From NCBI GenBank assembly GCA_965223505.1, contig CBDCWP010000041.1, forward strand, positions 64,001 to 128,000: DNA of 64,000 nt, given 5' to 3'. This document shows, one piece after another, positions 45,772 to 58,016 of the stretch (position 1 is its first letter; the number at the start of each line of letters is the position of its first letter). The notes under the pieces are model-generated. The model saw only the letters and a program-made list of their open reading frames with translations. It had not been told where the DNA came from and did no database searches. Source of the stretch: Planctomycetota bacterium. Lineage in GTDB: Bacteria; Planctomycetota; PLA2; JAEUHO01. Position numbers and translations under genes: made by a program.

Positions 45772-46005
45772 TCAGACCTTCGCGGAGACCTCGTCGAGGA
45801 TTTGGCGTTCGTCCGGGAACTCACCGGTTTCGAGCTTCGAGTAGATCTGCTCGTCATCGACGAACACCTCGAAACAGCCACCCCCGCGGGGTTCGAGCTC
45901 GAGGGACGTGATGTTGCGCTTCAGGCTTTCCAGGAGCAGCGACGTCAAACTGACGGCTTGCGGCTCATAGTTTCAGACCGAGCAGAATTGAATCCGGATC
46001 TTCAT
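45772..46005 (-). CDS. SelW/SelT/SelH (Rdx) family selenoprotein, 77 aa, Sec at codon 11
   Basis: MKIRIQFCSV-UGA-NYEPQAVSL..GGGCFEVFVDDEQIYSKLETGEFPDERQI; GGAGA RBS 5 nt before ATG; TGA at 45973-45975; absent from ORF track. Confidence 0.92.
45941..45957 (-). promoter_or_regulatory. Bacterial SECIS element candidate of the Rdx selenoprotein
   Basis: CGTCA-GTT-TGACG stem-loop, loop starting with G 22 nt after the UGA. Confidence 0.7.
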
Positions 46006-47396: not shown

Positions 47397-48743
47397 ATGG
47401 ACGCCAACCTGCCGGTCCACTTCGGACGACGCGTCATCGCGAGCATCGTGTTGATCGCGGTGGTGCTGTTCGCCGGGTTCACGGGCTACAAGAAGCTCGC
47501 GGGCATGCGCGAGGATAGCGCGCGCTCGGCCGGCGACGTCCCGCCCCCGCTGGTCAGGCAGGGCGTGGCGGCGCGCGGGGACTACAAGGAGACGCTGCGC
47601 GGCTACGGGCGCGCCCGGGCGATTCGCCGCACGAGCGTTTCCGCCGAGGTCGCCGGAACGATCACCTGGGTTGCGCCCGCGCTGGAGGCGGGCGCTGCGA
47701 TCGAGTTCGATCCGCCGGCGCGCACCAACGGGGACGCGCCGAAGAACGGAGACCGGCCGCCCGCGGGGCCCGAGGTCGTGCGCATCGACGACGAGGACTT
47801 GCAGGACCTGCACGCCCGCGCGCTCGCCGAACAGGCGGCCGCCGCGTCCGACATTCGCCGGCTCGAGACGCTGCACACGAGCGTCGAAGCGCGTCTGAAG
47901 GTCGCGCAGGAGGAGTACGACGTCGCGACGCGCGAGTACGAGCGCGTCGCGGGACTCGTCGCGCGAGGGCGGCTTGGCAAGAGCGACGCCGATCGCGAGC
48001 GACTGAAGGTCACGCTGCGTGAGCGGGCGCTGCTGGAGCTGCAGTGGTCGGACGACGAGACCGAGGAGTCGCTGAGGGCCGCGAAGGAGCGGCTGAAGGC
48101 GCGCGAGAAGGACGTCGCGCTGGCCGCGCGAAACATCGAGCGTGCCAAGATCTTCGTTCCGTTCCCGGGCCGCGTCGAGATGCGGCACGTCAACCGCGAC
48201 GACCGCGTCAACATCGGCAGCCCCATGTTCGACATCGTGGACCTGTCCAAGGTCGAGGTGCCGGTGGCGTTGCCCGCCGGGCGCTATGACGACGTCGACG
48301 TCGGCTCGCCCGTCGTGCTTCATCGCGCGCAAACCGGCGAGGAGCTCTGGAAGGGGTCGGTCGCGCGCAAGTCGCCGCGCATCAACGACGAAGACCGCAC
48401 CTTCTTCGTCTACGTCGAGATCGGCGGCGACGCGACGTCCAATCCGGTGCCGCCCGGCACCTACGTGTTGGCCGAGGTCGACGGGAAGACGCACACCGGC
48501 GTGGTTGCGGTTCCGCGCGAGGCCTTCGTGGGCAAGTACCTGTTCGTCGTGGACGAGCAGGACGACACGTTCGTCGCGCGGCGGGTCGAGCCGGAGGTGG
48601 AACGTCTGCTCGCCGGCGTCGCGCTGGTGCGCGGCGGCATCGACGACGGCGCGCGCTACGTGCTGACCAACCTCGAGTCGATCGCCGACGGCTCGGTCAT
48701 TCGCGTCGCGGAAGACGAGGAGGCGCGCACGGCGTCGAAATGA
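47397..48743 (+). CDS. RND efflux periplasmic adaptor (membrane fusion protein)
   Basis: N-terminal TM, VSAEVAGTI, long coiled-coil hairpin, IFVPFPGRV, VAVPREA. Confidence 0.9.
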   Translation: MDANLPVHFGRRVIASIVLIAVVLFAGFTGYKKLAGMREDSARSAGDVPPPLVRQGVAARGDYKETLRGYGRARAIRRTSVSAEVAGTITWVAPALEAGAAIEFDPPARTNGDAPKNGDRPPAGPEVVRIDDEDLQDLHARALAEQAAAASDIRRLETLHTSVEARLKVAQEEYDVATREYERVAGLVARGRLGKSDADRERLKVTLRERALLELQWSDDETEESLRAAKERLKAREKDVALAARNIERAKIFVPFPGRVEMRHVNRDDRVNIGSPMFDIVDLSKVEVPVALPAGRYDDVDVGSPVVLHRAQTGEELWKGSVARKSPRINDEDRTFFVYVEIGGDATSNPVPPGTYVLAEVDGKTHTGVVAVPREAFVGKYLFVVDEQDDTFVARRVEPEVERLLAGVALVRGGIDDGARYVLTNLESIADGSVIRVAEDEEARTASK

Positions 48744-51700
48744 ACCTCCCGCGCTTCTCCGTACGCAATCCCGTACCGGTCAACCTGCTGATGATCGTCG
48801 TGATCTTCGGCGGTCTCGTCGCGGGTAGCGCGATCATCCGCGAGTTCTTCCCGAACATCGAGCCGGAGCTGGTGACGATCACCGTGCCGTATCCGGGCGC
48901 CACGCCCGAGGAGATCGAGCGCTCGGTCACGCGTCTGGTCGAGCGCGAGATCGAGGACGTCGACGGCGTGAAGGAGATTCGCTCGAGCGTCTTCGAGGGT
49001 CTCACGGTGATCGCAATCGAGCTCGACGACGGGGTCGATCGCAACCGCGTCGTCAACGACCTGCGCGGCGAGGTCGACAAGGTCATCCCGGACCTGCCGG
49101 ACGACGCGGAGGAGCCGGAGATCTCCGAGGCGCGGCCGTTCATCCCCGTGATCGCGGTCGTCGTGTCCGGGGACGTGACCGAAGACAAGCTCCACACCGT
49201 GGTCGAGCAGGTCCAGGACGAGTTGCTGGACCTCGAGGAGGTCACCGAGTCGCTGGTGACCGGCTTCCGGAAGCGCGAGTTCCTAGTGGAGATCCAGCCG
49301 GACCGCCTCGAGGAGTACGGCATCACTTTCGAGCAGGTGGGACGCGCGGTCGGCGCGCTCAACGTCGACGTCCCGGGCGGACAGCTCAAGGGTGACCGCA
49401 CGAACATCCGCGTGCGCACGGTCGGCGAGGAGCGCGTGACCCACGAGCTCGAGAATCGCGTGGTGCTCGCGAGTCCCGACGGCACCGCGGTTCGGCTGGG
49501 CGACGTCGCGCGCGTGATGCCGGGCTTCGAGGACAAGACGGAGCGCGGCAGCTTCCTGCGGATTCGCGAGACCGACTCGACGACGGCGACGCGAAAAGAC
49601 GAGCGCGCGCCGACGACCGGTCAGTCCGCCGCGTCGATCACGGTGTTCAAGACGCCCGAGCAGGACGCGATCAAGATCGCAGAGCGCGTGCGCGCCTTCG
49701 TCGCCGACGCGCCGACGCGCATGGGCGGCGCGGTCAAGCTCGAGACGACGACGGACCTGTCGCGCCTGATCCAGCAGCGCATCGACCTGATGACGCGCAA
49801 CGCGATCGCCGGGCTGATCCTGGTGCTGATCTGCCTGGCCGTGTTCCTGGAGCTGCGCATCGCGATCTGGGTCGCGCTCGGCCTGGGCTTCGCCTTCATG
49901 GGCACGTTCATCGTGATGTACTTCACGGGCCAGACGATCAACCTCATCAGCCTGTTCGGCTTGATCGTCGTGCTGGGCCTGATCGTCGACGACGCCATCG
50001 TCATCGCGGAGAACATCTTCCGCAGGCGGCGGGAGGGAATGCCGCCGCTCGAAGCCGCGGAGAAGGGCACGAACGAGGTCGCCGTGCCGGTGATCACGGC
50101 GGTGCTCACGACGTGCGCGGCATTCGGTCCCCTGGCGTTCATCGAAGGCCGGATGGGCGACTTCCTGGGTGTCTTGCCGGGCGTCGTCATCTGCGCGCTG
50201 GGCGTCTCGCTCATCGAGGCGTTCCTGATCCTGCCGCGGCACCTCGCGCACGGACGCCACGGCCCGCCCTCCGACAACGCGTTCTCGCGGTTCTTCGCCA
50301 AGTGGCGCACGGTGCGACATCGGTTCTTCGAGGAGACGTTGCCAGGCATCCTGGGGCGGTCGCTGCGCTTCCTCATTCGCTGGCGGTACGTGTCGGTCGC
50401 CACGATGTTCGTCACGGTCATTCTGATGGCCGGGCTGGTCGTCGGCGGCATCGTTCCGTTCGTCCTGCTGCAGGACACCGATGCCGAGACGATCACGTCG
50501 AAGCTGGAAATGGCGGCCGGTACGCCGGAGGCGCGCACGATCGAGACGCTGTCGAGGATCGAGCAGATCGTCGCGGCGCAGCCCGAGGTCGGCACGGTCT
50601 TCACCGTCGTCGGCACGTCCTTCGGCGATCGCGGCAGACAGGTCGCTTCGGACCCCGCGGTCGTCGGACAGATCACGATCGAGCTCTTGTCCGCCGAGAG
50701 CCGCGAGCTGGACGGTCTGCGCACGTCGACCGACCTGTTGACGGCACTTCGGCGCGAGACGGCGCAGCTCCCCGGCGTGCGTCGGATTTCGTTCACCTCC
50801 CAGGGCGGCGGTCCGCAGGGCGCCGACCTCGAGGTGCGCGTGCGCAGCACGAACCTCGAGGACCTGCGGAAGGGCGTCGCGTACGTGCGCGACAAGATGG
50901 CTGCGTTCTCCGGCGTCTCGGAGATCTACGACGACCTCGAGCTGGGAAAGCTCGAAGCCCGGCTGCGCCTGCGGCCCGAGGCCCGGCTGATGGGGCTGAG
51001 CACCGTCGATGTCGCCGTGCAGGTGCGGCACGCGCTGTTCGGGTTCGAGGCGCAGGACCTGCAGATCGGCAACGAAGAGGTGACGGTGCGCGTGATGCTG
51101 CCGGAGCAGCGACGACGCAACCTGGAGGACCTCGGGACGCTTCGCATCGCGCTGCCGAACGGGCGCCGAGTTCCCATCGAAGAGCTCGTCACGTTCACGA
51201 CGGACCGCGGGTACGCGTCGCTCTCGCGCGTCGACGGCAAGCGCGCGGCGACGATCAAGGCCGAGGTCGATCAGCGCACGGCGAACACGGCGCAGATCAC
51301 GGCGGAGCTGCAGCGGGACATCGCGGACATCGGCGAGCGCTTTCCGGGCGTATCGGTGACGTTCGAAGGCGCGCGCAAGGAGACGCGCGAGTCGGTCGGC
51401 TCGCTCTTCTACCTGTTCCCGGCCGCCCTGCTGTTCATCTTCGCGATCATCGCCGTGCTCTTCCGATCGTATCTGCAGCCGATCGTGGTGATGGCGGCGA
51501 TCCCGTTCGCGATGGTGGGCGCGATCGTCGGGCACTTCCTCATGGGGTACCCGTTCACCATCCTCTCGATGATCGGGTTGGTGGCGCTGGCGGGCATCGT
51601 GGTGAACGACGGGCTGATCCTGGTCGACTTCATCAATCGCCGGCGGCGCAAGGGCCAGCAGCTCGAAGCGGCGGTGGTGGACGCGGCGAAGGGGCGCATG

Positions 51701-51985
51701 CGTCCGATCCTGCTCACGTCGATCACGACGTGCGCGGGCCTGGCGCCGCTGATGCTCGAGACCAGCTTCCAGGCGCAGTTCCTGATCCCGATGGCGGTGT
51801 CGATCGTCTTCGGGCTCGCGTTCGCGACCGGCATCATCCTCGTGCTGATCCCGTTGCTCGTGATCATCCTCGAGGACGTGCGGGCGTGTCTGCGCTGGTT
51901 GTTCGGCGGTCCGTGGAGCCGGCAGCTCGGCTACGACCCCGCGGCGGGGGTGGGCGCGTCGAGCAGCGAGCTATCGGACGGCTAG
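48740..51985 (+). CDS. RND efflux permease (AcrB/AcrD/AcrF family)
   Basis: YPGATPEEIE, GLIVDDAIVIAENI, GIVVNDGLILVDF, RMRPILLTSITT. Confidence 0.95.
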   Translation: MNLPRFSVRNPVPVNLLMIVVIFGGLVAGSAIIREFFPNIEPELVTITVPYPGATPEEIERSVTRLVEREIEDVDGVKEIRSSVFEGLTVIAIELDDGVDRNRVVNDLRGEVDKVIPDLPDDAEEPEISEARPFIPVIAVVVSGDVTEDKLHTVVEQVQDELLDLEEVTESLVTGFRKREFLVEIQPDRLEEYGITFEQVGRAVGALNVDVPGGQLKGDRTNIRVRTVGEERVTHELENRVVLASPDGTAVRLGDVARVMPGFEDKTERGSFLRIRETDSTTATRKDERAPTTGQSAASITVFKTPEQDAIKIAERVRAFVADAPTRMGGAVKLETTTDLSRLIQQRIDLMTRNAIAGLILVLICLAVFLELRIAIWVALGLGFAFMGTFIVMYFTGQTINLISLFGLIVVLGLIVDDAIVIAENIFRRRREGMPPLEAAEKGTNEVAVPVITAVLTTCAAFGPLAFIEGRMGDFLGVLPGVVICALGVSLIEAFLILPRHLAHGRHGPPSDNAFSRFFAKWRTVRHRFFEETLPGILGRSLRFLIRWRYVSVATMFVTVILMAGLVVGGIVPFVLLQDTDAETITSKLEMAAGTPEARTIETLSRIEQIVAAQPEVGTVFTVVGTSFGDRGRQVASDPAVVGQITIELLSAESRELDGLRTSTDLLTALRRETAQLPGVRRISFTSQGGGPQGADLEVRVRSTNLEDLRKGVAYVRDKMAAFSGVSEIYDDLELGKLEARLRLRPEARLMGLSTVDVAVQVRHALFGFEAQDLQIGNEEVTVRVMLPEQRRRNLEDLGTLRIALPNGRRVPIEELVTFTTDRGYASLSRVDGKRAATIKAEVDQRTANTAQITAELQRDIADIGERFPGVSVTFEGARKETRESVGSLFYLFPAALLFIFAIIAVLFRSYLQPIVVMAAIPFAMVGAIVGHFLMGYPFTILSMIGLVALAGIVVNDGLILVDFINRRRRKGQQLEAAVVDAAKGRMRPILLTSITTCAGLAPLMLETSFQAQFLIPMAVSIVFGLAFATGIILVLIPLLVIILEDVRACLRWLFGGPWSRQLGYDPAAGVGASSSELSDG

Positions 51986-52020
51986 GCGACGCGGCTCAGC
52001 GCGGCGCCGCGCGGGAGGAC

Positions 52021-52137
52021 TTAGCGCCAGATGTCCGCCGACGGCGGACAGTTCGGTCCCGTTCACCCGCCGGAGGTGCAGCCGGCAAGAAACGCGGCCG
52101 CAGTGGTGACGACGAGTAGGGCAAGAAGCTTGCGCAT
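52021..52137 (-). CDS. Candidate 38-aa selenocysteine-containing lipopeptide (24-aa peptide if UGA is a stop)
   Basis: GAGGGAGA RBS; MRKLLALLVVTTAAAFLAGC-TSGG-UGA-TGPNCPPSADIWR-TAA; LAGC lipobox; TGA at 52063-52065; hairpin 12 nt downstream. Confidence 0.65.
52032..52050 (-). promoter_or_regulatory. SECIS-like hairpin of the candidate lipopeptide
   Basis: TGTCCGCC-GTC-GGCGGACA, perfect 8-bp stem, loop starting with G 20 nt after the UGA. Confidence 0.6.
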
Positions 52138-52235
52138 GAATGTCTCCCTCGAGGCGGCGCAAGGGTGGGCTGCCGCGTCGATTCCGTATGCCTTGCTTCC
52201 CGTACGTCCCGCGCAACAGGAAGTTGGTCAGGAAA

Positions 52236-53795
52236 TCAATCGGCTTCGAAGAGCGCCTTCGCCACCGCGGTGTCGATCTTGGCACCGACGTCGGTCTCGG
52301 CGGTGAGGAGGGTCGCGTTGTCGTAGGCGGCCGCGGCGGCCTGGGCGAGCGCGTGCGCGTCACCGAATCCGACGAACGCGAGCTTGTGCGACGCCACGAG
52401 TCGTGCCGGCGCGGCGTCGATGTAGCGCTCGGGGTCCTTCACGCCGGCAGGCAGGATCAGCACCCCCATGCCGCGGTCTACGGCGACGTTCACGAGGCCG
52501 TGGAAAGCGCCGAACGAGCGCTCGGAGCGGAACACGACGAGCAGGCCCTTGAACAAGCCGCGCGCGCCGGGCGCGACCATGGCCTCCTTGCCCCCGACGC
52601 GGATGCGCGTGGGCAGCGCCTGGTTGCCGAGATCGGCCGGTAGGCGGGTGCCTTCGCCGGCGATGCCGAGGATGGCGTCCGTGGCCGCGCGGGAGAGCAC
52701 GGCGCACTCGAGTCGATCTTCGAGCTTCTTCAGGTCCTCGAGCAGATCGTCGGCGCCGTTGGCTTGCATGAGGCGTAGGCAGCCGAGCACGACGTAGCCT
52801 TGCTCGCTCTCGACGCGCAATGCCTCGACGTCCCCCATCAGGATCCCGCGCAGCAGATCACGGCAGGCCTGATGCGGTTCGGCCGAGACCAGCGCCTCGG
52901 CGCTGGCACTGCGCGCTTCGGGATGCTTGTCGAGCGCCATGACGAGCCGGCGCAGCAGATCACCGGTGTCCTTGACGCCGTAGCGGCCGAGGAAGCGCGC
53001 GGTGACCTCCGCGTTGTGACGAAGCCCGTCGCTGGAGACGCTCTCGAAGGTGTCGTCGGAGTCGAGGAACGACTCGAGGTCGCTGCTCGCGCTCGTGAGC
53101 GAGCGAAACTCGTTGCTGCGACGAACGAGCTCCATCGACTCTTCGGCGGTGCGGTCGGCGCCGTCCCACGGCTGGACACCGTCCAGATGCACGATGCCGA
53201 AGTGGTCGCCGTGCTCAACGACGCGGATGTAGCGCTCGCCGTCGTAGCGCCCGAACAGCGCGACGCGCTGGCCCGGTTGGATGCTGGCGGGAAAGCGGCA
53301 GGAGCGCCCTTTGGCGTCGCCGAAGATCGTCTCCTCGACGCGCAGACGCAGCACGCCGTTGAAGCGCTCAGTGGTGCCGATCAGCAACACGTCGCTCGAG
53401 CGGGCGAGGTCCTTCGCCGAGATCTGCTGTGCGGCGTAGGCCGTCGGCAGGAACAGGTCGTCGTCGGCCTGGTTGAAAAACGCGACCGACGCGCCGACGG
53501 CGACGAGCACGCAGGCGGCGACGGCGAGGCGGGGCAGCGTGAGTGCTCGCTTGCGGCGCGCGACTCGCTCCGGCTGGCCGGTGACGGCGCGCAGGATGTT
53601 GTCCTTGACGTGGCACGGCGCGGGCTTGGGATCGACGGCCTTGCGTACGAGGCGCACCATCTCTTCGGCTTCGCGGTACTGACGCGCCCAATCGGGCGAG
53701 GTGCGGATCAGGTGTTCGAGCCGCGCCTCTTCTTCGGGCGTGAGGACGCCGGCCAGGTGTCGATCGATCAGTTGCTTGTCATCCGAGGTGTTCAT
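52236..53795 (-). CDS. Putative transmembrane anti-sigma factor
   Basis: N-terminal IDRHLAGVLTPEEEARLEHLI anti-sigma-like domain (no ZAS Cys), single TM, large HEAT-like extracytoplasmic region; coupled to ECF sigma. Confidence 0.72.
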   Translation of the reverse strand: MNTSDDKQLIDRHLAGVLTPEEEARLEHLIRTSPDWARQYREAEEMVRLVRKAVDPKPAPCHVKDNILRAVTGQPERVARRKRALTLPRLAVAACVLVAVGASVAFFNQADDDLFLPTAYAAQQISAKDLARSSDVLLIGTTERFNGVLRLRVEETIFGDAKGRSCRFPASIQPGQRVALFGRYDGERYIRVVEHGDHFGIVHLDGVQPWDGADRTAEESMELVRRSNEFRSLTSASSDLESFLDSDDTFESVSSDGLRHNAEVTARFLGRYGVKDTGDLLRRLVMALDKHPEARSASAEALVSAEPHQACRDLLRGILMGDVEALRVESEQGYVVLGCLRLMQANGADDLLEDLKKLEDRLECAVLSRAATDAILGIAGEGTRLPADLGNQALPTRIRVGGKEAMVAPGARGLFKGLLVVFRSERSFGAFHGLVNVAVDRGMGVLILPAGVKDPERYIDAAPARLVASHKLAFVGFGDAHALAQAAAAAYDNATLLTAETDVGAKIDTAVAKALFEAD

Positions 53796-54358
53796 CACTC
53801 GCTCACCAGGTGTTTGAGCTGCGACCGCAGTACGCGGTTCGCGCGGAAGATCTGACTGACGACCGTGCCGACGGGGACCCCCAGCATGCGGCTGATCGTC
53901 TTGACCGGCAGTCCCTGCCCGTAGCGCAGGAGGACGACCGGTCGAAAGTGTTCGGGAAGAGAGGCGATGGCGGCGTGGATCTGCGTGCGCGTCGACGCGC
54001 GATCGTTGAAGCGGCTGTCGTCGTCCGCGCCTTCGTCGGGCAGGACGGAGGCGAGGTCGTCGCTGAGCGCGGGGCGCCGGGGTCGGCGGCGAGCGATCTC
54101 GACGCAGCTTCGAACGACGATGGTGAACAGCCACCCGCCGAAGCGAGCGGGGTCGCGCAGGTGATCGAGCTTGCGAAACGCTAGGATGAACGCGTCCTGT
54201 GCTGCGTCTTCGGCGTCGCCCCAGTTGCGGGTGCGTTGGTAGGCGAGGGCGAGCGCTTGACTCCAGTGCCGGTCGACGATCCGGTCGAAGGCCTCGCGCC
54301 GTCCGGCGCGGGCTTCTTCGACGAGCTGTGCGTCGGTCGGGACGTGGACTCCGGACAT
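53795..54358 (-). CDS. ECF-type RNA polymerase sigma factor
   Basis: DAQLVEEARAGRREAF, DAEDAAQDAF..FGGWLFTI (region 2), LP..VVLLRY..GVPVGTVVSQIFRA (region 4); GGAG RBS. Confidence 0.92.
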   Translation of the reverse strand: MSGVHVPTDAQLVEEARAGRREAFDRIVDRHWSQALALAYQRTRNWGDAEDAAQDAFILAFRKLDHLRDPARFGGWLFTIVVRSCVEIARRRPRRPALSDDLASVLPDEGADDDSRFNDRASTRTQIHAAIASLPEHFRPVVLLRYGQGLPVKTISRMLGVPVGTVVSQIFRANRVLRSQLKHLVSE

Positions 54359-55113: not shown

Positions 55114-55200
55114 TGGTGGGCCCGCTGGGACTCGAACCCAGATGGGCTTGCGCCCCGCGGATTTTAAGTCCGCTGCGTATACCAATTCCGCCACAGGCCC
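55114..55200 (-). tRNA. tRNA-Leu (anticodon UAA)
   Basis: GGGCCTG..GGAATTGGTATAC..GCGGACTTAAAATCCGC..long variable arm..GGTTCGAGTCC..CCA. Confidence 0.95.
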
Positions 55201-55303: not shown

Positions 55304-55377
55304 GGCACCGTGGCCGAGTGGTTAGGCAACGGATTGCAAATCCGTGTACTCCGGTTCGATTCCGGACGGTGCCTCCA
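55304..55377 (+). tRNA. tRNA-Cys (anticodon GCA)
   Basis: GGCACCG..ACGGATTGCAAATCCGT..CCGGTTCGATTCCGG..CGGTGCC-T-CCA. Confidence 0.95.
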
Positions 55378-55700
55378 TCTTCCGCGCTCGGCGCTGATTG
55401 TTCCGCCCTGTGCGAGTCAGTCGGCTTCGGTATCTGCTCGGTCGTAGCGCCTGGCGCCCACTGACAACGAGACGGCAAGCGCCCGCGCATACGATCCGCT
55501 TCGCGGAGATACGGAGCCCGTATCTGCGCAATATTCGTCGATCGCGGCCCGTTGAACATCGAACAGAAAATCCGGGCTCGGTATCACGCCGCGAGGCGAC
55601 GAAACACCGGTCGGCCTTCTCCGCCCTACCTTCCGAGAGAGACTCCGCCGCCGGCGAGTGGTCCCTCCCGCCCACTTGCTACAACGGCGGAGATGCTGTG

Positions 55701-58016
55701 ATGTTCCTGAAACGCGAGAAACTGTTCGTGAGCTACGCGAGCGACAACGACAGCTTCGTTCGAGACGAGGTGCTCCCGCAAGTCAAGCGCGGGAGGCGCG
55801 ACCCGTGGTTCGCGCCGAAGAACATGGACGGCGGCGTCAACTGGCGCATGGAGCTGCTCGACGGGTTGGAGACCTGCGATCGCCTCCTCGTCGTGGTGTC
55901 GAGAGAGTCTCAAGCCAGCGACTACGTCCGAGACGAGGTCGCCCATGCCGCCAGGCGGCTGCTGGAGAAGCGGGCTAGGCTCGACGCGCGACGGGTCCAC
56001 AGAGCCATCCTACCGGTGAAGCTCGATCCCCGTGACGAGTTCGGGCAGACGCCGGAAGACCGCGACCTGCGAGAGGGCAACCCGCAAGCCGACGTCAATC
56101 CCTATCAGATCCATCCATACCTGACACTCGTCAACTACATCGAGATGCCGCACAGCGCGGCGCTGAACAAGAAGCTCGACCCCGAGACGGGGCGCTATCT
56201 GCACGATCCCGGCGAACTGACGCGGGCGCAGCGCGAGTCGATCCGTGAGTACGTGGAACAGCGCACTGAAGCGCGGGAACGCCTGCTCAAGGCGATTCGA
56301 AACCCGGATGTCCTGCATTGGGGCTTCAAACGATTCGGCCGGATGCTCGCGACGTTCGCGAGTCCGACGTTCCAGCGCTTCGCGCTCGCGTTCGGCGTCG
56401 TCGTTGCGATCTTCGCACTGCTACAGCTGCCGACGAGTCTCTTCTGGAGCGACGAGGTCGTGGACGTCGCACGTGCACCGTCGCTTCGCATCACAGCCAA
56501 CGGAACGACCCTTCCGGTCGATCGGGTGGCCGCCGCGCAAGGCATCCCCCTCGATCTGCGCGACGGTCCGATGAACCTGCTCATCGAAGCGCGCACCCGC
56601 GACGGGGAACCGGCCCGAGCCAGCATCACGTTTCGTCCCGACGCGGAGGCTCTGGCGGCCGCGCAGCCGCACGTGCCGCCGGCCGATGATGGCGCAACGT
56701 CGGACGTGACCGAGGTCGAGCCCGCAGCGACGCTCGACCAACCTACGTACGAAGCGACGGCGCCGACGATCGAGTACCGACTCGAGCGGAGCGGCGCTTG
56801 GAAGCAGCTCGCCGAGGGAGCGGGCATTCCGGTCGGGCCCGGCGACACCCCGCTCTACATCCGGTCCAGCGCCGGCGGCGATCCCACCTCGACCCACGCG
56901 ATCCTGCAGCCGGAACCCAGCGCGCAAGCGCCCACGAAATCAGACCCGGCACAGGACCCGCGCAAGTCCACCGAGACCCATTCCACAGAGACGCCGACGC
57001 TGCCCGACGTCCGGATCGTCTTCGAGACGACGCCGAAGACCGCGTTGGTGGATTCCGAGAGCGGGTTGCGCATCGACGTGGGTGCGCAGATCCAGCTCAT
57101 GGCGCGGGCCGAGACGATGGACGGCACGGTGCTCGAGCGTGCCGCGGTGACGCTGAACCCGCTGGCGCCTTCGATCGAGTTCATCAAGATGACGCAAGGC
57201 GACGACGGCAAGTGGGACGAGGAGCCTTTGGTAGGCGCCGACGAACAGGCGCTTCGTTCGGGGCGCCCGATTCCGACGCTTTCCGTGGAAGCGGATGACG
57301 TCACGAGGCTCGGCATGCGCGTGACCGATGGCGCCGGCAAGCTCACCGCGCGTTACGTCACGCTCGACGCCGTACCTCCGCCGCTCAGCGACACCGAGAT
57401 CAAGGTCCAGTTCCTGGTGCCACTCTTGGACGGATTCCCTCGGACCCAGAAGGTGAAGACGGTCGATGGCTCGGTGGAGTGGAGCAAGATCCCGGACGTC
57501 GCCTTCCCGATCGGCGCGGACGACCCGGTGCTGCAGGTCGTCGCGCGCGCTCCCGGGGGCAAGTGGGCCACCCGGCGCGTTCGCATTCGACCGCCCGGCG
57601 TGACCAAGACATTGCCGCCGATCGAGACGGATCGCGTCGTCGAGGCGCCGCCCGCCGTGCCGGCTCCGGTGATCAAGATCTACAAGGCGGTGCAACGCGA
57701 GCGGGCGCCGGAGTGGATCGACGTGTGGGGCAGCTTCGATCGTCCGGCGACGGCGCTGTCGCTCAACCGCTTCGACATCAGCCGTTACATCCTGAATCCG
57801 GAACGCATGCGTTTCCGCCTGACGATTCGAACGGGCCAGGTCCTGAACCTGCGCCGCCCGATGGTCTTCGAGATGCTGGACGAGCACGGACTCACCGCCT
57901 GCGCGACGCTGGTGCCCGTCATCGTGCCGGTCACGGTCACTGTGCCCGTGCCGGTGCCGGTGCCCGGCGACGACGGCGGACTCGAACACGGCGACCTGTT
58001 CTTCGACGACGGCTAG
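55701..58016 (+). CDS. TIR-domain transmembrane protein with repeated beta-rich extracytoplasmic modules
   Basis: LFVSYAS, WF, G.NW, LLVVVSRESQASDYVRDEV (TIR with catalytic-position Glu); TM FALAFGVVVAIFALL; GGAG RBS. Confidence 0.8.
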   Translation: MFLKREKLFVSYASDNDSFVRDEVLPQVKRGRRDPWFAPKNMDGGVNWRMELLDGLETCDRLLVVVSRESQASDYVRDEVAHAARRLLEKRARLDARRVHRAILPVKLDPRDEFGQTPEDRDLREGNPQADVNPYQIHPYLTLVNYIEMPHSAALNKKLDPETGRYLHDPGELTRAQRESIREYVEQRTEARERLLKAIRNPDVLHWGFKRFGRMLATFASPTFQRFALAFGVVVAIFALLQLPTSLFWSDEVVDVARAPSLRITANGTTLPVDRVAAAQGIPLDLRDGPMNLLIEARTRDGEPARASITFRPDAEALAAAQPHVPPADDGATSDVTEVEPAATLDQPTYEATAPTIEYRLERSGAWKQLAEGAGIPVGPGDTPLYIRSSAGGDPTSTHAILQPEPSAQAPTKSDPAQDPRKSTETHSTETPTLPDVRIVFETTPKTALVDSESGLRIDVGAQIQLMARAETMDGTVLERAAVTLNPLAPSIEFIKMTQGDDGKWDEEPLVGADEQALRSGRPIPTLSVEADDVTRLGMRVTDGAGKLTARYVTLDAVPPPLSDTEIKVQFLVPLLDGFPRTQKVKTVDGSVEWSKIPDVAFPIGADDPVLQVVARAPGGKWATRRVRIRPPGVTKTLPPIETDRVVEAPPAVPAPVIKIYKAVQRERAPEWIDVWGSFDRPATALSLNRFDISRYILNPERMRFRLTIRTGQVLNLRRPMVFEMLDEHGLTACATLVPVIVPVTVTVPVPVPVPGDDGGLEHGDLFFDDG
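57972..58014. repeat. 43-bp direct repeat, copy 1
   Basis: GACGGCGGACTCGAACACGGCGACCTGTTCTTCGACGACGGCT; 40/43 identical to 61390-61432. Confidence 0.85.

Follow-up and report, generated by a model that had tools for sequence, protein, structure and literature searches.

In the window analyzed here, a 64,000-nucleotide stretch of the genome of a Planctomycetota bacterium (GCA_965223505.1, contig CBDCWP010000041.1, positions 64,001 to 128,000), the minus strand carries at 52021..52137 a mini-gene, overlooked by gene callers, that is quite probably a real gene for a 38-residue pre-prolipoprotein, in which the UGA at codon 25 (UGA25) would be decoded as selenocysteine (Sec, U in peptide sequences) to yield a 19-residue lipopeptide. 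Judged from sequence comparisons, the mini-gene belongs to a new, well-supported family of very small and most likely lipid-anchored selenoproteins in one Planctomycetota group. An earlier reading of this DNA, the original prediction, had proposed just such a mini-peptide, anchored through a lipobox, with Sec decoded in a U-x4-C pair by means of a hairpin of the selenocysteine insertion sequence (SECIS) type. Homologs, the hairpin and the decoding machinery support that proposal, and the observations named beforehand as refuting it did not turn up in the searches made.

The mini-gene, its hairpin and the decoding machinery

Re-read on the minus strand, every element that had been predicted proved correct, from the ribosome binding site 5 nt before the ATG at 52137 through the LAGC lipobox and the in-frame TGA to the terminal TAA. 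The features are as follows.

52143..52150, minus strand: Shine-Dalgarno-like sequence GAGGGAGA, followed by 5 nt and then the ATG at 52137
52021..52137, minus strand: mini-gene MRKLLALLVVTTAAAFLAGCTSGGUTGPNCPPSADIWR, 38 codons plus TAA, with homologs of the same architecture
52081..52137, minus strand: putative signal peptide, residues 1-19, with n-region MRK and hydrophobic core LLALLVVTTAAAF, defined by regular expression
52078..52089, minus strand: lipobox L-A-G-C, with Cys20 the predicted lipidated residue 1 of the mature peptide, invariant in the family alignment A6
52063..52065, minus strand: in-frame TGA, predicted to be decoded as Sec25, residue 6 of the mature peptide, in the same column in 12/12 window-type members
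52048..52050, minus strand: TGT for Cys30, the partner in U-x4-C, invariant in A6 and doubling as the first 3 nt of the hairpin
52032..52050, minus strand: SECIS-like hairpin with 8-bp stem and GUC loop, fitting the bacterial SECIS (bSECIS) consensus and of the same type as the hairpins of accepted selenoprotein genes in this genome
52021..52023, minus strand: terminal stop TAA after ...WR; TGG-CGC-stop closes six window-type members

Read through on the minus strand, the gene runs MRKLLALLVVTTAAAFLAGC-TSGG-TGA(52065-52063)-TGPNCPPSADIWR-TAA(52023-52021). The lipoprotein assignment was made by regular expression only (lipobox [LVI][ASTVI][GAS]C), with no signal-peptide predictor behind it; the peptide has the positive n-region, hydrophobic core and LAGC that this definition asks for. 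NCBIfam profiles for lipoprotein signal peptides gave weak matches only (LptM, E = 0.031, residues 1-20). The combination is rare: a pattern in which a lipoprotein signal peptide is followed by at most 12 residues, a TGA, at most 40 more residues and a stop has just two matches in the genome containing the window (G000; 5.15 Mb, 92% complete). A base-call error at the TGA, one of the named grounds for doubt, was not borne out by Logan contigs, where the stretch is present in two runs of one sample, possibly the source sample, with 0 differences, TGA included.

The hairpin behind the UGA had been predicted as a perfect 8-bp stem starting 12 nt after it, with a GUC loop whose G lies 20 nt after the UGA, and this was confirmed on the minus strand: stem TGTCCGCC (52050-52043), loop GTC (52042-52040) and stem GGCGGACA (52039-52032), the stem being written UGUCCGCC/GGCGGACA and the loop starting 20 nt past the UGA. 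The fold energy of the hairpin is -15.5 kcal/mol in a 40-nt stretch. According to the figure legend of a recent review, the bSECIS consensus comprises a loop of 3-9 nt, a stem of 4-16 bp, a G within the first two loop positions, a distance of 16-37 nt from the UGA and a minimum free energy of -7.5 kcal/mol or lower (PMC13188914, Fig. 2 legend). The window hairpin (GUC, 8 bp, 20 nt, -15.5 kcal/mol) satisfies all of these, and in all relatives of the window gene the stem, the loop and a spacing of 19-23 nt agree with the consensus as well. Since this consensus is loose, stricter chance controls were made at random TGA sites and at gene ends, in which a hairpin was counted when its stem began 8-22 nt after the TGA, had 8 bp or more without a mismatch and enclosed a GU loop of 3 nt. 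Such a hairpin follows 6 of 60,000 random genomic TGA sites (17 when loops of 3-5 nt are allowed) and none of 2,436 likely real gene ends (3 with the wider loops). As for an intrinsic terminator, the hairpin was not flagged among the terminator-like sites of 51800-52400; it is without a U-tract, the bases after the stem being AUCUGGCGCUAA.

That the genome very likely decodes Sec, as had been supposed, is upheld by profile searches that found selB (335.7 bits), selA (507.2 bits) and selD (338.1 bits), all over the cut-off, and by the detection of a tRNA-SeC with ARAGORN; the selD gene carries an in-frame TGA of its own. The enzymes for lipoprotein maturation are also encoded, with lgt at 136.1 bits and lspA at 80.9 bits, each over its cut-off. 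Co-occurrence with selA is uninformative, because 27/29 genomes of the family have a selA match. For comparison we used the thioredoxin-fold open reading frames (ORFs) of the same genome with an in-frame TGA in UxxC or CxxU, plus the SelW-like gene, whose hairpins have stems of 5-7 bp and GUC or GUU triloops beginning 20-27 nt after the UGA.

C39 gene: stem 7 bp, loop GUC, loop start 27 nt after the UGA
C11 gene: stem 6 bp, loop GUC, loop start 27 nt after the UGA
C44 gene: stem 7 bp, loop GUU, loop start 20 nt after the UGA
SelW-like gene (CSVU; FCSVU), 45772..46005, minus strand, 77 aa: stem 5 bp, loop GUU, loop start 22 nt after the UGA
Window mini-gene: stem 8 bp, loop GUC, loop start 20 nt after the UGA

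The SelW-type gene near the mini-gene, cited in the original prediction for its GUU loop at 22 nt, is thus real. By its sequence features the window hairpin is the same kind of element as these. A TlpA-like ORF with U-G-P-C was also seen in this genome.

Homologs and the coding sequence beyond the UGA

A six-frame search of 29 family genomes with the read-through peptide and a search of 40 genomes of the order with the A6 profile uncovered 11 further window-type genes in 6 further genera, which makes 12 in total over 7 genera, plus one degenerate copy (G001). The further genes are listed by genome and contig.

G008, C5: ...LQAC-ASGGG-U-GPRGC-PTPSASSWR-stop, the closest to the window gene
G005, C64: ...LSGC-SGS-U-KGPDC-GPG...GSGWR-stop
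G018, C104: ...LAGC-SGS-U-GPKGC-GPG...GHGWR-TGA
G026, C45: ...LAGC-SSG-U-GKGGC-...GHGWR-TGA
G013, C271: ...FQGC-RSG-U-AGGRC-AVPSASP...SSWR-TGA
G005, C27: [R/T]xG-U-xxGRC-AVPSASP...
G018, C297: [R/T]xG-U-xxGRC-AVPSASP...
G023, C352: [R/T]xG-U-xxGRC-AVPSASP...
G020, C10: C-[TS]SGG-U-GxGRC-AVPSASP...
G009, C5: C-[TS]SGG-U-GxGRC-AVPSASP...
G003, C30: ...LSGC-AGG-U-AGGSC-F-stop

Every window-type member has a signal peptide, the lipobox Cys, the TGA, the x4-C and a hairpin with its loop 20-23 nt after the UGA, so that the common motif reads C-x3-5-U-x4-C. The invariant columns of A6 are M1, R2, C20, U25, C30 and P32. The hairpin loop is GUC in 9 of 13 genes (the 12 window-type members and the G001 copy) and GGUC, GGUCU, GGC or GGGC in the remainder, and the outer stem pairs covary between subfamilies (C-G to U-A; C-G to A-U to G-C). 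In 150 other genomes of the phylum the A6 profile had no match at E <= 1e-5, and a compositional artifact is therefore less likely. When the 1-kb region was used as a DNA query against 61 relatives, the 3' end of the gene for the resistance-nodulation-division (RND) permease beside the mini-gene was alone conserved, the mini-gene not.

A second form of the family, here called CU-type, reads ...LTGC-U-xGGxCG-TAG and is represented by nine distinct sequences, all with TGA. In five genomes of a sister genus (g5) a mini-gene of this type, MRxxLSxAMLLATAAxLTGC-TGA-SGG[S/G]CG-TAG, lies convergent to and just downstream of the orthologous RND gene, which is the place of the window gene, and the window genome itself has a paralog on contig C7 (...ILTGC-TGA-NGGTCG-TAG). 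GGAG or GAGG is found 5-9 nt before the ATG in all six aligned CU-type relatives. Scans for this form used a degenerate pattern in which the third position of the TGA was left free (TGN). The pattern occurred in 5/401 genomes of the phylum and, when reversed as a control, in none; in species-representative genomes it gave 17 stretches, of which the 7 with a signal peptide all come from Planctomycetota metagenome-assembled genomes, the 10 without being rejected as chance matches or the C-termini of unrelated proteins. Among 11 stretches from metagenomes there were two true members, one of them a duplicate of G017 and one new. None of these TGN-permitting scans found a Cys variant of the CU-type; a metagenome scan with the anti-sigma alignment gave 403 pattern matches, of which 0 were confirmed.

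Behind the CU-type TGA a 6-bp hairpin, GCGG[C/G]U-loop-A[G/C]CCGC, begins 13 nt on and includes the TAG, and sequence conservation ends immediately past it. Its stem pairs were counted by script, because MAFFT had misplaced the loop gap; the fifth pair is C:G in four sequences and G:C in four, and broken in 0/8. Farther downstream in G026 there is a second hairpin, one that has a T-run, and at C7 the next same-strand gene follows ~30 nt past the hairpin, so that the CU-type hairpin is not the terminator. Some unrelated proteobacterial ORFs (L047, L057, L053, L059) end in ...GCCSGG[NGK]CG-stop, the CU-type C-terminal motif with Cys, and are without a signal peptide, by chance or convergence.

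Taking both forms together, the Sec column holds TGA in 12/12 window-type and 9/9 distinct CU-type members, and U-x4-C is kept in 21 of the 22 TGA-bearing members (12 window-type, 9 CU-type and the G001 copy). Homologs ending at codon 25 with TAA or TAG, which had been named as a possible refutation, were not found.

By comparison of these genes we were able to show that coding constraint extends past the TGA. Four genes of the AVPSASP type differ at third positions in the codons right after it (GGG/GGA/GGC, TGC/TGT), and their indels before the terminal stop measure 9, 9 and 18 nt, those behind the stop 4, 17, 7, 3 and 19 nt. WR-stop closes six members that vary widely in length. Lack of conservation 3' of the UGA had been another announced ground for refutation, and the U-x4-C, the in-frame indels and the WR-stop tail of the six members speak for such conservation. 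In a BLASTP search U25 of the window peptide aligned to a Cys in G027, where an OmpA-like lipoprotein of 285 aa has '...SSK-C-TGPNC-AP' near its N-terminus and the first Cys of this motif is the one matched; G028 has C-SST-C-DGGPC-GPG. A positional pair is found behind a conserved gene for a protein of ~590 aa, namely C-ASGGG-U in G008 and the Cys-only C-TSGGG-C-STCGG-stop on contig C26 of G000. A small homolog with Cys at the exact Sec column and the same tail was not found in the searches of related genomes. At the nucleotide level, the identical hexamer TGGCGC stands before the stop in the window (52024-52029) and in L121, L122, L124, L125 and L137, at very different distances from the hairpin.

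Cys-only mini-lipoproteins of this kind are conserved across genera, with mature parts of 6-11 residues: C-T(S)GGGCSTCG(G)-stop, C-TGGGCSTCG-stop, C-RGGCTACGR-stop and C-RGGCCG-stop. They were found on contig C26 of G000 (L129:5756-5851) and at L081, L114, L115, L116, L080, L103, L104, L146 and L154, and in four genomes a Cys-only gene immediately precedes a Sec-type mini-gene in a tandem arrangement. With the Sec members they share the signal peptide type, the G/S-rich linker and the Cys-rich head; unlike them they have neither a TGA nor a SECIS-like hairpin, and C-x-x-C takes the place of U-x4-C. They matched no NCBIfam family, and a 41-aa Cys-rich paralog used as a protein query matched itself only.

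Competing explanations and a proposed mechanism

Several observations weigh against decoding of UGA25 as Sec in a translated gene. The Arg of the WR ending is CGC in 6/6 cases, which could be a constraint at the nucleotide level, and the residues P-S-A are partly encoded by the hairpin core CC-GUC-GG, so that protein and RNA constraint are confounded there. The window tail PPSADIWR is supported mainly by one homolog (G008), because the compared genomes include none of the same genus. The whole 86-nt region is no more stable than its dinucleotide shuffles (z = 0.14), so the exceptional feature is the local hairpin only and not the fold of the whole region; Rfam gave no relevant match at the mini-gene region. 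Several homologs have Q at lipobox position -2. The genome G004 (92% complete) carries a CU-type gene yet gave no selA match, and the RND-adjacent copy in G001 retains TGA and hairpin without the lipobox Cys and the x4 Cys. This copy (L128:6309-6422, minus strand, contig C116) reads ...AAAFLVFFAGG-TGA-NSPRQAPSAPASSY-stop with the hairpin GGCGCC-GUC-GGCGCC; it is either decaying or a variant in which Sec replaces the anchor residue. Lastly, neighborhoods vary among the family members, and context does not constrain function.

If UGA25 were an ordinary stop, the product would be the signal peptide followed by C-TSGG, and the hairpin would be a terminator or an RNA-stability element. The original prediction had held a 5-residue mature peptide to be implausible, a view that we could not uphold, as Cys-only lipopeptides with 6-11 mature residues are conserved in the same bacteria; moreover, the hairpin does sit between convergent genes. 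We nevertheless regard an ordinary stop as improbable. The U-x4-C, the WR tail, the in-frame indels and the synonymous changes would all lie beyond it, and the stop would be TGA in 21/21 Cys-bearing members, while the Cys-only relatives mostly end with TAG. The hairpin is without a U-tract and unflagged by the terminator scan, comparable hairpins follow just 0-3 of the 2,436 likely gene ends, and the C7 hairpin stands ~30 nt ahead of a same-strand gene. A role of the hairpin solely as a terminator, also named in advance as a refutation, is thus not supported. A chance ORF overlapping a bidirectional terminator that serves both the RND and the anti-sigma gene is the least credible of the explanations weighed here, in spite of the many spurious ORFs of a G+C-rich genome and the unexceptional overall fold of the region: only two such ORFs exist in 5.15 Mb, the gene has a Shine-Dalgarno-like site and, with the degenerate copy of G001 counted, homologs in 7 other genera, and the A6 profile stays silent at E <= 1e-5 in the 150 other genomes of the phylum.

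Translation might also serve regulation, with Sec read-through or stalling at the UGA sensing the selenium supply and controlling neighboring genes, while the peptide itself has no role. The C7 paralog directly upstream of a gene for a secreted thioredoxin-PDZ selenoprotein, and members of the AVPSASP type that in two genomes precede a flavin-reductase-like gene by 32-48 nt, would suit such a leader. The window gene and the five g5 genes, which converge on the RND gene, have no downstream same-strand gene; a leader could do without conservation of the lipobox and lipoprotein signal peptide and without U-x4-C being invariant, and Cys-only and larger lipoprotein homologs exist, all of which makes this explanation very unlikely. 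Very little probability, and slightly less than for the leader, is given to decay, in which the mini-gene would be what is left of a longer lipoprotein gene (the OmpA-like protein of G027 with C-x6-C-TGPNC is an example) and the TGA would have arisen by chance. The 285-aa homolog with CTGPNC in common and the apparent degeneration of the G001 copy would fit decay, whereas 12 window-type genes in 7 genera with the same short architecture, TGA and fixed-distance hairpin, covarying stem pairs and indels in frame would not.

Under the preferred reading, that of Sec decoding at UGA25, the hairpin would stand at the mouth of the mRNA channel and recruit SelB with Sec-tRNA(Sec) as the ribosome holds UGA25 in the A site; Sec would be inserted and translation would proceed to the TAA. 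The precursor would then be exported, Lgt would add diacylglycerol to Cys20 and LspA would cut off residues 1-19. The predicted product is the 19-residue C-TSGG-U-TGPN-C-PPSADIWR, tethered to a cell-envelope membrane, and its working part may be the U-x4-C pair. For this pair we lean tentatively towards redox cycling at the membrane surface between selenol/thiol and selenenyl-sulfide, in slight preference to binding of soft metals or metalloids, which is nearly as probable a role.

For the family as a whole we consider it likely, if less so than for the single gene, that no smaller selenoproteins made by ribosomes have been seen so far: these peptides would have 8 to ~40 residues and a diacylglycerol anchor, and their sole conserved feature would be U-x4-C beside that anchor. 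Together with their Cys-only paralogs they would provide the planctomycete envelope with a selenol/thiol system of low molecular weight that is tethered to the membrane, and in the CU-type a SECIS straddling the stop would direct Sec only 7 codons before termination. Such a system could act in redox buffering, in peroxide and electrophile quenching or in soft-metal capture, and its recycling may fall to the exported selenoproteins with a thioredoxin fold that these genomes encode.

Relation to known systems and genomic context

In the SECIS of the E. coli fdhF gene the spacing is 11 nt and the loop GGUC. Like in-ORF SECIS/SelB selenoprotein genes of the fdhF type, the mini-genes combine an in-frame UGA with a short hairpin in which G(U) opens a small loop, with Cys homologs and with selA, selB, selD and selC. 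They differ in being genes of 27-57 codons with mature products of 8-40 residues and no globular fold, while the SelW-like protein of the window has 77 aa; in the CU-type, moreover, the TAG lies inside the hairpin, so that half of the element falls beyond the ORF on its 3' side. The recoding is that of the known bacterial scheme, whereas the class of product is outside it.

The CU selenoproteins (CU and CU-COOH) of the SAO system offer another comparison. SaoC, as described for this nine-gene system of anaerobes, averages 158 residues and ends UGA-UAG, and a metal-binding role has been proposed (10.1101/2022.07.06.499078). Its recoding signal must lie beyond the ORF because the UGA is so close to the true stop; the Cys-Sec dipeptide and the mostly lipoprotein-type signal peptides are further likenesses (10.1101/2022.07.06.499078). 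The difference is that in the CU-type mini-genes lipidation is predicted on the very Cys of 'CU', with a mature peptide of 8 residues in all. DAG-RiPPs are short peptides of the lipoprotein pathway defined by an adjacent MNIO enzyme (PMC13056109). With the mini-lipopeptides they share shortness, the lipobox, a predicted N-terminal diacylglyceryl-Cys and Cys-based chemistry in the next few residues (PMC13056109). Among known small peptides with a lipobox they come closest to the mini-lipopeptides. They are MNIO-dependent, in contrast to G000, in which the MNIO profile PF05114 (MbnB/TglH/ChrH) had no match at 92% completeness, and no MNIO gene was seen in the neighborhoods scanned; the word stem 'selen...' is absent from the available text of PMC13056109.

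The original prediction had seen no recognized family in the peptide, and we came to the same result. In NCBIfam, six read-through peptides had only weak matches at the level of the signal peptide (E >= 0.01) and no family. The database BSepDB comprises 111 selenoprotein families (PMC13326102); the word 'lipoprotein' does not occur in the main text, as available, of the 2026 review (PMC13188914) or of the BSepDB article (PMC13326102), the family list of the latter being in a supplement outside this check. Our literature search on Sec-containing mini-lipoproteins, with the BSepDB supplementary family list outside it, likewise found no paper describing such genes.

If the proposed reading is true, selenoproteins reach down to 8-19 mature residues, an ORF size that gene callers and selenoprotein pipelines exclude, and a bacterial SECIS works with most of the element beyond the stop of a 27-codon gene. 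The peptide would be a natural, genetically encoded, lipid-anchored selenol, relevant to envelope redox biology, metal handling and peptide engineering. With a gene of 117 nt and an element of 19 nt, the family is a compact system for testing SECIS rules, and it hints that Planctomycetota possess a broader range of Cys-rich mini-lipoproteins that annotation has passed over.

In the window the mini-gene had been placed between an RND permease gene and an anti-sigma gene, and both neighbors were located there.

48740..51985, plus strand: RND permease gene (ACR_tran, E = 5e-172), convergent with the mini-gene and 36 nt from it, stop to stop
52236..53795, minus strand: anti-sigma factor gene, 519 aa, 98 nt upstream of the mini-gene (NCBIfam antisigma, E = 9.4e-12, below the cut-off)
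53795..54358, minus strand: gene for a sigma factor of the extracytoplasmic function (ECF) type, 187 aa, with Sigma70_r2 and r4 domains, its stop overlapping the anti-sigma start

Since the mini-gene comes after the ECF sigma and anti-sigma genes and shares their strand, it may plausibly be expressed under envelope stress. The convergent arrangement with RND is kept in the five g5 genomes and in G001, and orthologs of the anti-sigma factor (44% identity) lie upstream of a CU-type mini-gene in G022 and G027. Over the family, the neighborhoods comprise the ECF sigma/anti-sigma pair with RND (window), an exported thioredoxin-PDZ protein with CVPU (C7), a FecCD-type ABC transporter (G008, contig C4), the ~590-aa protein and a flavin-reductase-like gene. 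In G004 and G026 the CU-type mini-gene adjoins a tRNA-like sequence and an integrase fragment, not the sigma/anti-sigma pair.

On contig C7 of G000 an ORF at L033:6470-7819 (minus strand) encodes a secreted Thioredoxin_7-like and PDZ protein with an in-frame TGA in RCVPUVGC, ~50 nt downstream of the CU-type mini-gene (L033:7846-7929); from its sequence it is a probable selenoprotein split by annotation. The ~590-aa protein has an N-terminus with multiple transmembrane segments and the motifs GSGFLFCPHxW and RHFVGLPRVRV, and its gene (L129:3806-5596, L121:6120-7895, L123:4045-5775 and L125:2690-4420; alignment A5) is in every case followed directly by a mini-lipopeptide gene of the Cys or the Sec type. 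Searches of Pfam, NCBIfam, the PDB and the ESM-Atlas gave no lead for it, and kinship with the anti-sigma factor of the window was ruled out (hhalign probability 0.1). On contig C26 of G000 a fusion of radical SAM, SPASM and methyltransferase domains with a weak PqqD-like N-terminus (L129:5973-8453, minus strand) is convergent on the Cys-only mini-lipopeptide gene; it is possibly a peptide-modifying enzyme and was not seen at the other loci.

Contig C40 of the same genome holds, at ~224205-225950 on the plus strand, four small metallothionein-like lipoprotein genes rich in Cys, Asp and Pro with 'DPC' repeats, e.g. C-CGWDPCCDPCDPCCNPDPCDPCDPCAK-stop, and a relative occurs in G003 (L117). In the window, a tRNA-Leu(taa) at 55114-55200 and a tRNA-Cys(gca) at 55304-55377 are located just upstream of the sigma factor gene, and beyond this tRNA pair an 872-aa ORF with a TIR_2 domain extends over 55398-58016.

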